Program-made: the position numbers and the translations under genes
Shown: positions 6,784 to 10,184 of the stretch, piece after piece
Layout: each line of letters begins with the position of its first letter
Position numbering within the stretch: position 1 is the first letter of the stretch
The notes under the pieces: generated by a model
Databases searched by the model: none
Told to the model about the DNA's origin: nothing
The model's input: only the letters and a program-made list of their open reading frames with translations
From: a virus
Taxonomy: Duplodnaviria; Heunggongvirae; Uroviricota; Caudoviricetes
Length of the DNA: 10,664 nucleotides
IMG/VR virus record: IMGVR_UViG_2667527789_000015
Direction: 5' to 3' (one strand)

Positions 6784-6838
6784 CGCAACCAAACGACTCG
6801 GGGTGCCCTTCTGCGTGAAGGCTGAGAAATACCCGTAT
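6784..6838 (+). promoter_or_regulatory. Truncated 5' portion of the thiM TPP riboswitch (THI-box) aptamer
   Basis: Sequence AACCAAACGACTCGGGGTGCCCTTCUGCGTGAAGGCTGAGAAATACCCGTAT matches the 5' half (P1 5' strand, P2, P3, CUGAGA motif) of the E. coli thiM aptamer as I recall it. The native continuation (CACCTGATCTGGATAATGCCAGCGTAGGGAA, P4/P5) is absent; the sequence after 6838 is unrelated. Confidence 0.6.
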
Positions 6839-6932: not shown

Positions 6933-6990
6933 GTTGTTCGTCGTTGTTCGTAGAGCTTCAACAAAATGTGTGGTCAGTTGTGTGGTCAGT
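6933..6990 (+). repeat. Short direct repeats upstream of the integrase gene; candidate integrase arm-type binding sites
   Basis: Seen directly: GTTGTTCGT at 6933-6941 and 6943-6951, and a perfect tandem TGTGTGGTCAGT at 6967-6978 and 6979-6990, lying between the junction and the integrase start. Confidence 0.4.
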
Positions 6991-7026: not shown

Positions 7027-8247
7027 GTGGGAAAAGCACTAAACAAACTGAGCGATTCGACGTTAAAAAAATTGGCGGCTGTCCAGGCAGAAAAAGAGCG
7101 TTTTTACTCCGACGGGGGCGGGCTGGAGATTAAACACTCAAAAGGCGGCAAATTAACCTGGTATTTTCGGTACCGAACGGGAGGCCGTGAGGTCGCCGCA
7201 GAGCGGTTAAAGCTGGGGGCTTACCCTGAGCTGTCGCTGAAAGCTGCTAGGGAAAAACGCACACAGTGCCGGTCATGGCTGGCTGAGGGTAAAAATCCCC
7301 GTTATGAGTTGTGCGCCACAGTACAGGAAGCATTAAAACCCGTTACGGTGAAGGAGGCGATTAACTACTGGCTGGAGGAATACGCGAAGGATAATCGCAA
7401 AGACTACATAAAACTGGTGCAACGTATGGATAAGCACATCATTTGCCATATAGGGGCAATCCCTCTTGATAAATGCGATACAAGGCAGTGGATCGCATGT
7501 TTTGACCGTGTACGAAAAAAAGCACCAGTAGCAGCAGGGCACGTCATGCAAACCTGCAAACAGGCGCTAAAGTTCTGCCGCAGGAGGCGCTACGCGTTCA
7601 GTAATGCCCTGGACGATTTGATCGTCAGCGATGTGGGTAAGAGAGCAGAAATTCGCGAGAGGGTACACAGTAACAGCGAATTAAAGGAAATTTTACGCGC
7701 TATCGATGGTGATGTGTTCGCGCCTTACTACAGCACGTTAATGCGCTTGCTGATTGTGTTCGGGTGCAGAACGGCAGAGGTCAGACTTTCAGAGATCAAA
7801 GAATGGGATCTGAAAGAAATGTTGTGGACAGTGCCAAAAGAGCACAGCAAAACGAAGGTAACGATATTCAGGCCAATCCCCGATGGCATTTTGCCGTTCA
7901 TTCAGAAGCTGGTGGAGCAGAACCGACATACAGGGTTATTGCTCGGAGAACTGAAAAAAGATACCACGGTAGCGCAATATGGGCGAAATGCGCATAAGCG
8001 GCTTAACCAGGAACACTGGACGCTGCATGACTTTCGCCACACGTTTACAACGATGCTGAACGATTTAGGTATCGATCCGCATATCGTGGAGCACATCACA
8101 GCGCATCAGATGCCCGGTCAGCAAAAAACCTATAACCATTCACGCTATTTACAGGCGAAACGGGACGCTCTGAATCTATGGGTTGAGCGTCTCGATGTGC
8201 TGGCTGGAAATCATGAAAATATTGTTATGCTGAAGGTGGCTAAATGA
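7027..8247 (+). CDS. int: Tyrosine site-specific integrase, P4-type (phage integrase family)
   Basis: 406-aa ORF with a GTG start and AAGAGG 10 nt upstream. N-terminal arm-binding-like region (LKKLAAV...GGGLEIKHSKGGKLTWYFRYR) and C-terminal catalytic signatures (FGCRTAEV box I Arg, HDFRHTF H-x-x-R, KTYNHSRY Tyr region) typical of tyrosine recombinases. Confidence 0.9.
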   Translation: MGKALNKLSDSTLKKLAAVQAEKERFYSDGGGLEIKHSKGGKLTWYFRYRTGGREVAAERLKLGAYPELSLKAAREKRTQCRSWLAEGKNPRYELCATVQEALKPVTVKEAINYWLEEYAKDNRKDYIKLVQRMDKHIICHIGAIPLDKCDTRQWIACFDRVRKKAPVAAGHVMQTCKQALKFCRRRRYAFSNALDDLIVSDVGKRAEIRERVHSNSELKEILRAIDGDVFAPYYSTLMRLLIVFGCRTAEVRLSEIKEWDLKEMLWTVPKEHSKTKVTIFRPIPDGILPFIQKLVEQNRHTGLLLGELKKDTTVAQYGRNAHKRLNQEHWTLHDFRHTFTTMLNDLGIDPHIVEHITAHQMPGQQKTYNHSRYLQAKRDALNLWVERLDVLAGNHENIVMLKVAK

Positions 8248-9038
8248 AAGATTTTCCTCGTATATATTATACTTTGCCTATGGCAGCAAAAAAACTCGGC
8301 TGCACGGTGGATGATATTCTACATCTTGGGGCAACCAATAGACTTGAAATATGTGCATATATTGGTGAAAACGACTTATTAATAAGTGAGAATAAGTGCT
8401 CTGCTAGAGTGATTTTTGAAGATGATAGCGAAAGTTATTATGTTGAACAGATAAAAGAACGAAATGTAATAGATAGTGATATGTATAAGATATCTTATCT
8501 TCATTACAATGATGATTATGTTGAGGATACCGACACAGGGATATTCAGACTGCCAGGTTGGTATGCAAATTATTTAAAGGGTTTTTTTGCAATTCCGTCG
8601 CAGTATCTTGTGGATGTTGAATTATCAGGTCCGCACAATGCTGTTGACGTCAAACCACAACATCTTTACACCATAAAAGCACATTACAAAAAGCTATATT
8701 TAGCTGGAATTTGGGGGTTGTTTATTCCGGAGGAAAGATTAGTCGTTTTCGAAAATGAACTTTCGAATTTTGATTATGCGGCAAAACCTGTATATGGCGG
8801 AGGTGATAGAGAATCTCCGAAAACCATAGCTAAAAAAGCCGAGATAATACCTGCACTCATAAAACTGATTCCTGAGATGCAGGATGTGGATTTGGAGGAG
8901 ACACCAGTAACCAAAATTGCAGAAATGATAGAGGTTATCGCTGCGCAAAGAGGGGTTGAGCTACCCAGCACTCACAGGCAGACATGGCAGAAATATTTGG
9001 GGCGTGATATTGGTGACGTTCCGAAACGTCAAAAGTGA
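8244..9038 (+). CDS. Hypothetical 264-aa protein, AT-rich cargo gene; N-terminus resembles an excisionase/MerR-type HTH, C-terminal domain unknown
   Basis: ATG at 8244 overlaps the integrase TGA (ATGA, 8244-8247) with AGGTGG upstream, indicating translational coupling. Composition is visibly more AT-rich than the flanking integrase. N-terminal TLPMAAKKLGCTVDDILHLGATNRLEI resembles HTH_17/excisionase helix-turn-helix patterns by eye; no catalytic motif recognised in the rest. Confidence 0.65.
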   Translation: MKDFPRIYYTLPMAAKKLGCTVDDILHLGATNRLEICAYIGENDLLISENKCSARVIFEDDSESYYVEQIKERNVIDSDMYKISYLHYNDDYVEDTDTGIFRLPGWYANYLKGFFAIPSQYLVDVELSGPHNAVDVKPQHLYTIKAHYKKLYLAGIWGLFIPEERLVVFENELSNFDYAAKPVYGGGDRESPKTIAKKAEIIPALIKLIPEMQDVDLEETPVTKIAEMIEVIAAQRGVELPSTHRQTWQKYLGRDIGDVPKRQK

Positions 9039-9066
9039 TATCACGTACCGATAGTGTGATATCACA
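9034..9066. promoter_or_regulatory. Pair of perfect 10-bp palindromes GTGATATCAC (12-bp with flanks), centres 21 bp apart; putative operator
   Basis: Seen directly: GTGATATCAC at 9035-9044 (overlapping the ORF264 TGA stop) and at 9056-9065. Two helical turns between centres is typical of dimeric HTH repressor operators. Confidence 0.5.
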
Positions 9067-9094
9067 CAAACGGCGTTTTACCACCGTCTAGAAT

Positions 9095-9129
9095 CGTCCT
9101 CGTTCGGCAACGTTCGAGGACGTTTTTTT
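9095..9129 (+). terminator. Hairpin plus T7 run; intrinsic terminator after int-ORF264 and/or leader attenuator of the AlpA-family gene
   Basis: Seen directly: CGTCCTCG at 9095-9102 pairs with CGAGGACG at 9115-9122 (8 bp, 12-nt loop), then TTTTTTT at 9123-9129 immediately before the ATG at 9130. The GAGGA at 9117-9121 that would serve as the alpA Shine-Dalgarno lies in the 3' arm of the stem. Confidence 0.5.
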
Positions 9130-9354
9130 ATGAATCAAAATACACAATTTCAATCACTATCAGATCGCGTAATCCGTGAGGATGAATGTCGTAAGTTAAC
9201 TGGAGTATGTCGTACTACACGCTACGAACTGGAGAAAAAAGGGCGATTTCCGTCACGCCTTAATCTGGGCGGTCGTTCTGTAGGTTGGCTGCTGTCCGAG
9301 GTTATGGAATGGGTTAAAAGCCGGGATCGCATTAATTCAGGTAAGGCAGCGTAA
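9130..9354 (+). CDS. alpA: AlpA-family phage transcriptional regulator / excisionase-like DNA-binding protein
   Basis: 74-aa ORF with the family pattern: basic region, HTH (LTGVCRTTRYELEKKGRFPSRLNLGGRSVGW) and acidic/W tail (SEVMEWV). Position just downstream of a P4-type integrase is typical. Confidence 0.75.
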   Translation: MNQNTQFQSLSDRVIREDECRKLTGVCRTTRYELEKKGRFPSRLNLGGRSVGWLLSEVMEWVKSRDRINSGKAA

Positions 9355-9367
9355 AGGGGAGCATATG

Positions 9368-9401
9368 ACACATAAAACAAAGGCGACCGGGGGCGGTCGC
9401 C
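9368..9401 (-). terminator. Hairpin GGCGACCG-GGGG-CGGTCGCC with T-rich tail on the minus strand; terminator for the minus-strand gene 9490..9792
   Basis: Seen directly: perfect 8-bp GC-rich inverted repeat at 9382-9401; on the minus strand it is followed by TTGTTTTAT (complement of 9373-9381). Confidence 0.45.
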
Positions 9402-9489
9402 AATGGGAAAACACTAAACATAAGCCCGAACATCATAGCGATTTGCTGGCTGGTGGGCAATGTGATCAGTGTGGTGGTTTGCTGGTGGA

Positions 9490-9792
9490 TTATTCCGCTT
9501 CTTTGGCCTTGCGACGCTGGAGTTCTTCGCGTGCAACGGTGACAAGTTGCCCGATTTCTTCCGCTGCTTTGATGCCGATTTGTTCGACCTTAGCCAGAGC
9601 ATCCAGTGAAGACACAAGGGGATTTTCTCCGCTGCCTTCTGCCTGGCGGCGTGCTATTTCTCCGCGCATGGCGGTTACGATAAATCCTGCATTGCTCTCG
9701 CCGTCCAGCTTAACGGATTCCATGCCTTGCATGACATCGTGAGGGACTCTGAGCGTTGTCATTTGAGATTTTGCGTTTTTGTATACGGACAT
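9490..9792 (-). CDS. Hypothetical ribbon-helix-helix-like DNA-binding protein (putative repressor), 100 aa
   Basis: Minus-strand ORF with a plausible protein composition. Residues 12-45 (TTLRVPHDVMQGMESVKLDGESNAGFIVTAMRGEIARR) fit the beta-strand/helix/helix pattern of Arc/CopG-type RHH domains by eye. Divergently transcribed from a repeat-rich promoter region. The overlapping plus-strand ORF 9365..9742 looks like a Ser/Ala-rich shadow frame. Confidence 0.55.
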   Translation of the reverse strand: MSVYKNAKSQMTTLRVPHDVMQGMESVKLDGESNAGFIVTAMRGEIARRQAEGSGENPLVSSLDALAKVEQIGIKAAEEIGQLVTVAREELQRRKAKEAE

Positions 9793-9810
9793 AATTAATC
9801 ACCAGTTTAT

Positions 9811-9913
9811 TGTGTGTATATCACTATACAGTAAAGTGAGATATAAAAAAACTTGAAATGTATATCACATCAATGTAACGTGTATCTCACATGATGATTA
9901 TGTGTATCTCATG
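9811..9913. repeat. Array of GTGTAT(A/C)TCAC repeats (four direct, one inverted) in the divergent promoter region
   Basis: Seen directly: GTGTATATCAC 9814-9824, GTATATCACAT 9860-9870, GTGTATCTCAC 9880-9890, GTGTATCTCAT 9902-9912, and the inverted copy GTGAGATATA 9836-9845. Spacing of about 21-22 bp between the last three. They share the TATCAC half-site with the palindromes at 9035-9065. Confidence 0.5.
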
Positions 9914-9989
9914 TACGAAAAGACGAAACCCCGCAGTGCTGGAACACATACGGGGCTTCTAACCACAAACACTATAGAGAGGTAAATTT

Positions 9990-10184
9990 ATGGTTGCCGT
10001 AAATCATACTCCACGACTAGCACACACACAAACGGCCTTTGTGTGGCGTTTTCTGGCCCTGAGTGCCGGAGAATCTCAAATCATCCACGTAACCGCCTGG
10101 ACGGAACGCGAAGCGCGTAACCGTTGCCCGTCCGGTTGTGTTGCTGTATTTGCCGCCCGTATTCGCCAGGGGGTAGGCTTATGA
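9990..10184 (+). CDS. Small protein resembling Icd-like host cell division inhibitors (P1 Icd / P4 Kil type)
   Basis: 64-aa ORF with GAGAGG Shine-Dalgarno 8 nt upstream. Sequence pattern (HTPRLAHTQTAFVWRFLAL...TEREARNR...VAVFAARIRQG) resembles, from memory, Icd-like proteins annotated in P4-like elements. First gene of the rightward operon. Confidence 0.5.
   Translation: MVAVNHTPRLAHTQTAFVWRFLALSAGESQIIHVTAWTEREARNRCPSGCVAVFAARIRQGVGL

Follow-up and report, generated by a model that had tools for sequence, protein, structure and literature searches.

The window analysed here, i.e. the whole 10,664-nucleotide stretch of the IMG/VR virus record IMGVR_UViG_2667527789_000015, carries an open reading frame (ORF) of 264 amino acids (aa), which we call gene X as a working name, between an integrase gene (int) and alpA of a phage-inducible chromosomal island (PICI). 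Our results lead us to propose, with a probability of roughly 55%, that X is an optional transcription factor, coupled to the integrase Int, which controls the alpA induction switch. Tandem palindromes and an alpA leader hairpin, absent from the original prediction made for this ORF from the sequence alone, point to a transcriptional regulator of alpA. The region concerned is organised as follows, positions being those of the window:

7027..8247, plus strand: int, P4-type tyrosine integrase of 406 aa (Pfam Arm-DNA-bind_3 and Phage_integrase).
8244..9038, plus strand: gene X, unnamed Enterobacterales family, three-domain protein.
9035..9044, no strand assigned: palindrome 1, GTGATATCAC, putative operator, overlapping the X stop codon.
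9056..9065, no strand assigned: palindrome 2, GTGATATCAC, putative operator, at 21 bp from palindrome 1 and 69 nt 5′ of the alpA start.
9089..9094, plus strand: TAGAAT, a -10-like hexamer with no -35 partner directly 5′ of the hairpin, putative alpA promoter element.
9095..9129, plus strand: hairpin CGTCCTCG-N12-CGAGGACG and a run of seven T, fold energy -17.7 kcal/mol.
9130..9354, plus strand: alpA, 74 aa, satellite-cycle activator (Pfam Phage_AlpA, E 2e-16).

The two palindromes are tightly linked to X. No further copy of GTGATATCAC, two mismatches being allowed, occurs in the island part of the window, and within 36.8 kb the pair is confined to the end of X, at a distance of 2.2 kb from the att core. 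Two exact copies are kept in 13 independent loci in which the 11-12-nt spacer and the flanks have diverged. When IMG/VR was scanned blindly for the double palindrome by itself, 11 loci were retrieved: eight with an X-family ORF whose end falls on palindrome 1, two coding tandem repeats and one P2-like region. Spacing is conserved as well: the centres of the palindromes are 20-22 bp apart, and in 16 of 17 cassettes 67-69 nt separate the centre of site 2 from the alpA start. Related loci display other palindromes, which mostly change together with the class of the X C-terminal domain, as expected if this domain reads the sites:

C-terminal class 1 (window): GTGATATCAC twice, in 13 independent loci.
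C-terminal class 2: TGGGAATTCCCA-like, within the 3′ coding end, in L015 and L033-35.
C-terminal class 3: GGAAATTYCC, as GGAAATTCC / GGAAATTTCC, in three independent loci (L036, L038 and L164).
C-terminal class 4: CCGAATTCGG twice, in L037.
C-terminal class 5: GTAATATTAC / GAAATATTAC, in L039.

In all classes the palindromes are of ~10 bp, occupy the same position and have an AT-rich centre, with outer triplets differing from class to class. Reciprocal scanning of IMG/VR with the class-5 motif gave no matches, and scans with degenerate patterns for more loci outside class 1 gave a single locus at most.

Judged from these sequences, X is the best candidate binder of the palindromes. AlpA was rejected for this role, a 90%-identical AlpA being encoded in islands without the sites. 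Arm-binding by Int is unlikely, because the sites are 2.2 kb from the core and the core is flanked on both arms by a different motif, TGTGTGGTCAGT in two copies. The palindromes could also act as RNA: the two copies pair as an 11-bp stem in the predicted read-through transcript, and in L007 the copies GTGAAATCAC and GTGATTTCAC are exact mutual reverse complements. They would then serve the int-X message as a 3′-terminal hairpin, involved in stability, processing or termination, rather than as protein sites, and the function of X would be unrelated. We consider this very improbable. In at least four sequence classes the individual arms are palindromes in their own right, a property needless for a hairpin and with a chance of about 1 in 1000 for each arm; between loci the arms do not vary in sequence, in contrast to the freely covarying alpA hairpin nearby, and the degenerate copies in L010 and L013 do not compensate.

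Outside the X loci, the P2-like prophage contig L025 displays GTGATATCAC-N11-GTGATATCAC (2165-2195) with the spacing of the X sites, just 3′ of a Rha-like gene and with no X. This pair could be due to chance, be the operator of another protein or be the target of an X-like protein on a phage genome.

The alpA leader is the second conserved element of the cassette. A consensus scan detected no full sigma-70 promoter between site 2 and alpA. The alpA Shine-Dalgarno sequence lies within the 3′ arm of the hairpin, and a T-run follows the hairpin in most loci. Across 13 loci, 95.7% of cells are paired and compensatory changes occur in six of the nine pairs; none of 500 shuffles reached the observed values, and slid controls came nowhere near. 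On folding, read-through RNA from X is predicted to carry a terminator-like hairpin, and RNA begun near 9101 (~7 nt past the -10, in the 5′ arm) to be unstructured. The hairpin looks like a terminator for int-X transcripts, hiding the alpA Shine-Dalgarno sequence.

AlpA is a helper-dependent activator of Gram-negative PICIs (PMC6092414), a role shown for EcCICFT073 and EcCIEDL933. The 2018 paper describing these islands calls it unclear whether a repressor exists, and the inducer unidentified (PMC6092414); in the literature we found no later paper settling this question or mentioning gene X. In the mechanism that we propose, the overlap of its start codon with the int stop would cause X to be produced along with Int, and in the quiescent island both would be expressed from the int promoter. 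Its C-terminal three-helix domain would bind both palindromes, probably as two dimers on one DNA face, and from about -41 and -62 X would set the activity of an alpA promoter lacking a -35. The hairpin and T-run would terminate int-X transcripts and conceal the alpA ribosome site on read-through, and alpA would be expressed solely from a transcript begun within the hairpin 5′ arm. X would be the gatekeeper of island induction, because AlpA activates excision, replication and packaging of Gram-negative PICIs. By analogy with Stl of Staphylococcus aureus pathogenicity islands (SaPI), the fast-evolving middle domain may receive the signal, most plausibly a helper-phage protein.

The data show that X is a gene in constant synteny, modular and present or absent in otherwise similar islands, and that its linked sites, their spacing and a covarying hairpin are conserved; the binding of X to DNA, the alpA promoter with its start point, the sign of the regulation and the signal are what we infer in this scheme. 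As for the sign, we lean somewhat towards a repressor with specificity classes resembling immunity groups, rather than a signal-dependent activator. A repressor would fit with the diversification of operator and protein classes, similar to that of immunity groups, and with the expression postulated in the quiescent state. An activator would fit with the lack of a -35 and the placement of the sites at -41/-62. A stronger version, which we put forward tentatively, is that X is the master repressor and helper-phage sensor in a subset of Gram-negative PICIs, with a new family and a new middle-domain fold: it would shut the alpA promoter via class-specific operators and be freed by a helper protein binding the hypervariable middle domain. 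If so, the operator/C-terminal classes would be satellite immunity groups, and the shuffling of middle domains would record an arms race with helper phages.

The position of X is constant. In every locus that could be read, X follows int and precedes alpA (or an HTH_17 gene); this applies to members with identities as low as 20-35%, to several att sites, and to classical as well as capsid-forming PICIs. The family was seen solely at this junction, and the integrase-regulator interval is a place for PICI accessory genes (PMC10085698). The X start codon ATG (8244-8246) overlaps the int stop TGA (8245-8247) as ATGA, read off the sequence, and its Shine-Dalgarno sequence AAGGTGG lies within the final int codons. 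An ATGA or TAATG overlap is present in most homologous loci, the exceptions being L040, with a 95-nt gap, and L037, in which the gene 5′ of X was not identified. These data uphold the ORF limits, the ATGA overlap and the arrangement for translational coupling to int claimed in the original prediction, which had also noticed that X is more AT-rich than its neighbours. Indeed, GC is 0.385 for the whole X gene vs 0.491 for int, and 0.345-0.357 over 8201-8800 vs 0.48-0.51 within int. From this, separate acquisition had been suggested. However, X is more AT-rich than int in all 11 loci measured (X 0.32-0.39, int 0.44-0.53); AT-richness is a trait of the family, because X GC is low in each of them, and does not count as evidence for a recent separate acquisition here.

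In spite of this constancy, X is dispensable for PICIs and an optional gene. At the cspD/yljB site, the O157:H7 island L019 has int-X-alpA, while the islands L018 and L020, from two other strains, hold a 420-bp AT-rich non-coding spacer instead of X; their integrase is 93% identical, and their AlpA 90% identical to that of the window. Islands with the spacer lack both palindromes and the hairpin, the swapped segment comprising the last ~20 codons of int, the first ~6-11 of alpA and what lies between, i.e. the whole region 5′ of alpA. The possibility that the spacer is a decayed X was rejected (best tblastn E 0.013). In other E. coli PICIs a DUF6387 (PF19924) protein fills the slot (L162 1483-2325, L163 1369-2364). 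Like X, the DUF6387 genes have an overlap with the int stop, here of 4 bp, and the same hairpin and then alpA come next; unlike X, they have no tandem palindromes 3′, and their sequence is unrelated. The two proteins, from L162 and L163, match neither the hidden Markov models of the X domains nor PADLOC, and the DUF6387 profile does not match X. The int-alpA slot is a three-state hotspot (X, DUF6387 or empty spacer), in agreement with the variability that had been predicted for this integrase-linked position.

X is a real, unnamed gene family and a member of no named family. A word-seeded search gave 22 clusters, each from Enterobacterales and unnamed. Intact homologues reach down to ~20-30% identity, and an exhaustive profile search retrieved 389 cluster representatives at E<=0.001 (93 at E<=1e-10, 42 at E<=1e-30), in support of the ORF being a real gene. 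Named members, all hypothetical, are from Escherichia, Salmonella, Citrobacter, Klebsiella, Enterobacter, Cronobacter, Serratia, Yersinia, Erwinia, Kosakonia, Buttiauxella and Pluralibacter. The X allele of the window occurs in 11 of 5426 complete E. coli genomes. At least 67 have the C-terminal/operator module, and O157:H7 and other Shiga toxin-producing E. coli (STEC) account for many of these. By tblastn, no homologue was found in 50,697 phage records or 72,556 plasmid records.

Scans against Pfam, NCBIfam, PHROGs and PADLOC gave nothing usable for X, its three separate domains or 122 relatives. A profile search of PDB sequences found no match at E<=10, nor did Pfam at E<=10 for X or its N-terminal 50 aa; with the Excisionase, HTH_17 (PF12728) and Phage_AlpA (PF05930) profiles, X rises above no curated cutoff. 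HTH_17 was reached by only one of the 122 relatives, at E 0.0026 and under the curated cutoff. PADLOC-DB 2.0 contains no family for X at E<=1, the sole PADLOC signal being a 27-residue match of one X relative to mad1 (E 0.015), and no catalytic or nucleotide-binding motif was found in X. Bro-N, ANT, AntA and KilA-N Pfam domains are absent from X and the 122 relatives; genes of Bro-N/KilA-N/ANT type are present 3′ of alpA in related islands. The original description of X as uncharacterised holds, and the check for homology to a characterised family found none.

These distributions bear on another explanation, namely that X is accessory cargo unrelated to island regulation, riding in the variable slot: a single-gene factor directed against phages or satellites or causing interference, or a DNA-binder aimed at the genomes of helper or competitor phages. 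It would account for the polymorphism of the slot behind near-identical integrases, the rarity of X in E. coli genomes, its AT-richness and fast-evolving middle domain, and the double palindrome without X in the P2-like prophage region of L025. We regard cargo as unlikely. With no PADLOC match and no catalytic or nucleotide-binding motif, X is not a recognisable defence gene; its family is confined to the int-alpA junction, while defence genes are usually found in many contexts; and conserved sites at a fixed distance from the alpA start are hard to reconcile with an action elsewhere. The defence or anti-defence role initially evoked for X is not supported on the same evidence, together with the absence of the family from phage and plasmid records.

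According to an AlphaFold model (pLDDT, predicted local distance difference test, 81.7) combined with alignments, X consists of three parts with a disordered linker between:

8244..8378, plus strand: X residues 1-45, conserved excisionase/MerR-like domain, probable winged helix (RxYYPLxxAAKKLGCxxxDxxHxGA).
8379..8783, plus strand: X residues 46-180, variable AT-rich alpha/beta middle domain, candidate signal receiver.
8805..9008, plus strand: X residues 188-255, conserved three-helix C-terminal domain, candidate operator reader (PKTxAKKxEIIPALIKLIPE...GVELPxTHxQTWQKYLGR).

The C-terminal helices are modelled at 192-206, 222-235 and 245-251; for the middle domain we found no structural match and no known fold. 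Mean pairwise identity is 0.61 for the N-terminal, 0.38 for the middle and 0.59 for the C-terminal part, and the N-terminal domain, the most conserved, is kept across all C-terminal classes. The X of the window is 96/92/66% identical (N/middle/C-terminal) to P0002, and 74/41/93% identical to P0003. From these sequence comparisons, the N-terminal plus middle module and the C-terminal module recombine independently.

The N-terminal domain brings in a further possibility, an oversized recombination directionality or integrase accessory factor, in which this Xis-like part would bend att DNA or contact Int and so bias integration relative to excision. The ~45 N-terminal residues have the beta-alpha-alpha-beta layout and the sequence pattern of the Excisionase/HTH_17/AlpA/MerR superfamily, and probably a fold like that of Xis, RdfS and AlpA-type excisionases; the excisionase-like helix-turn-helix predicted originally is supported at this level of layout and pattern, below Pfam thresholds. 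X differs from this superfamily in its length of 264 aa and its two further domains. The conservation of this domain in all classes and the strict start/stop overlap with int in most loci would also suit such a factor. However, 93%-identical integrases at the same cspD-side site do without X. No X-linked palindrome is found near attL or attR (36.8 kb), where the candidate arm-type repeats are a different motif, and AlpA, itself an excisionase-family protein, is already encoded next door. A relationship between the X N-terminus and AlpA was rejected, the profile comparison finding nothing (hhalign probability 0.2%). With its gene-linked sites 2.2 kb from the att core and directly 5′ of alpA, and near-identical integrases lacking X, the large recombination accessory factor envisaged in the original prediction is weakened, and we judge it improbable.

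Several points weigh against a role of X as regulator of alpA. The promoter, its start point and the binding of X to DNA are deduced from sequence, and no known DNA-binding family was matched by the whole protein or by its C-terminal domain. The two palindromes can pair as an RNA hairpin. PICIs function without X and a DUF6387 gene can fill the slot with the same hairpin 3′; therefore, the hairpin may be a mere terminator and X may be cargo. If X is constitutively made with Int, it must still respond to a signal in order to be switched. The C-terminal coding region adjoins the palindromes, and linkage therefore contributes to their co-occurrence. Operator classes other than class 1 rest on 1-4 loci each, and the class-2 site is inside coding sequence. 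Finally, >120 instances of the class-4 arrangement CCGAATTCGG-N11-CCGAATTCGG come from environmental metagenomes (contigs including L042-L121); their spacers vary and none has an X-family ORF near, and their frequency is far above chance for 20 fixed bases. The class-4 motif is not diagnostic of X, because of these matches without an X gene, and another widespread system appears to use the CCGAATTCGG tandem palindrome.

The proposed properties of X echo those of some known regulators. Stl of SaPI and Rpr of Gram-positive PICIs are likewise encoded next to int in phage satellites, between int and the regulatory or replication genes; they combine a DNA-binding N-terminus with divergent domains and exist in many specificity variants. 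They are made in the quiescent island and hold the induction switch until the helper signal, as X would do according to our proposal. On the other hand, no sequence or fold match of X with Stl or Rpr was found. Stl sits at a divergent promoter, whereas X is co-directional with alpA and its linked sites lie 3′ of its own stop; in the window island, the divergent promoter region (9793-9989) is that of a YlcI/YnfO-like gene, with repeats that do not track X. Also unlike Stl and Rpr, X is dispensable in close relatives, and its repression and binding of a phage protein are postulated.

The lambdoid CI immunity groups offer another parallel, with tandem palindromes about two helical turns apart and classes of protein and operator that shift together. 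One X site, at about -42, corresponds to the position from which lambda CI at OR2 touches RNA polymerase. However, CI belongs to an unrelated protein family, X contains no RecA-cleavage domain, the half-sites of X are only 5-6 bp apart in a 10-bp palindrome, and an immunity function of X is purely conjectural. For P4, the promoter PLL of the alpA homologue Vis requires upstream-bound delta/Ogr, and the downstream operon is insulated by termination (PMC10111431). The model for X also has an upstream-bound factor at the promoter of alpA and insulation by termination, but P4 relies on small zinc-finger activators, which have their genes elsewhere and use other sites, whereas X is unrelated to them and lies 5′ in the same direction.

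Considering its unrecognised middle domain and its tie to a conserved cis-regulatory cassette before the master activator of the satellite, X is best classed among the mobile-element regulators that have cognate operators. X makes the question of how Gram-negative PICIs sense helper phages directly testable with a single protein, a pair of 10-bp sites and a single promoter. Islands with and without X occur naturally that have integrase, AlpA and att site in common, and they are therefore ready-made controls. As X is found in STEC/O157:H7 islands and capsid-forming PICIs, it may affect the mobilisation of such gene-transfer elements. If the class-specific pairs of protein and operator are real, they would provide compact orthogonal regulator parts. 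If X is plain cargo, the int-alpA slot with its three states would still be a defined hotspot worth mining.

The window is a piece of Escherichia coli chromosome, with yehDCBA, rcnB, rcnA and rcnR followed by the mobile island. An identical copy of the island is found in strain S19-141 (NZ_CP075640), in which it extends over ~15.2 kb from the rcnR end to thiM. The front genes of this copy are int, X, alpA, a YlcI/YnfO-like gene on the opposite strand, an Icd-like gene and small ORFs; then come DUF4222, a RepA helicase, SSB and PerC (RefSeq annotation). The head/packaging set is complete (capsid, protease, portal, head closure, connector, HNH, TerS and TerL), and no tail or lysis gene is annotated by RefSeq in the NZ_CP075640 island. 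In the literature, capsid-forming PICIs are recognised by int, alpA, replication and head/packaging genes without tail or lysis genes; by this gene set, the island is a capsid-forming PICI. Its left end in the window carries two features:

6825..6838, no strand assigned: attL core AGAAATACCCGTAT, island left end, within the thiM thiamine pyrophosphate (TPP) riboswitch (empty site, attL and attR aligned).
6967..6990, plus strand: doubled 12-mer, TGTGTGGTCAGT twice, probable integrase arm-type site (repeat family, also seen near attR).

Similarity to island-free genomes ends at 6838/6839. The insertion splits the TPP riboswitch (window 6789-6838; L032 1290-1386; L001 31716-31834): the first ~50 of the 97 aptamer nt remain at attL, severed from thiM. 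At attR, island DNA substitutes for the lost half of the aptamer, giving a hybrid that scores 34.6 bits vs the Rfam cutoff of 54.3, and RefSeq annotates no riboswitch there. TPP control of thiMD is possibly altered in island carriers. The TGTGTGGTCAGT doublet lies ~146 bp inside attL and occurs again ~84 bp before the attR core (L001 about 31685-31708). This geometry is like that of the ‘doubled motif’ around attP of helper-embedded PICIs (PMC10111431), and the doublets are probably arm sites of the integrase.

At 9490-9989 of the window, on the minus strand, the YlcI/YnfO-like gene is divergent from the Icd-like operon. The divergent 197-bp stretch (9793-9989) is rich in the repeats TGTATATCACA, TGTATCTCACA and GTGAGATA; in other islands the repeats vary with the YlcI allele (GTGCGATTCA, TGTGCGCACA and TGTAAG.CA). 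Gene and repeats look like a second repressor/operator module, for the replication operon. The repeats of 9800-9915 (TGTATATCACA / TGTATCTCACA) were considered as extra X sites and rejected, since they vary with the YlcI/YnfO allele and are identical in the X-plus island L019 and the X-minus island L018. At 9922-9995, minus strand, a conserved hairpin CCCCGCAGTGCTGGAACACATACGGGG followed by a T-rich tract overlaps the Icd-like start codon. No Rfam match to an immunity RNA of C4/isrK type was obtained, the sole signal of the hairpin being a sub-threshold SymR-like match (32 bits, E 0.006); by analogy with P4 CI or P1 C4, it may be an antisense immunity RNA.

A 16-nt motif, CACACAAACGGCGTTT, stands at 9063-9078, just 3′ of palindrome 2, and a 15/16 copy at 10025-10040, inside the Icd-like gene, makes a small hairpin CACACAAACGGCCTTTGTGTG; this motif is not kept in other cassette types. 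Directly 3′ of alpA, a shortened Icd-like frame (9365-9487) is annotated as a pseudogene by RefSeq in the identical island. This truncated frame points to an earlier rearrangement, with insertion of the YlcI module into an alpA-icd junction.

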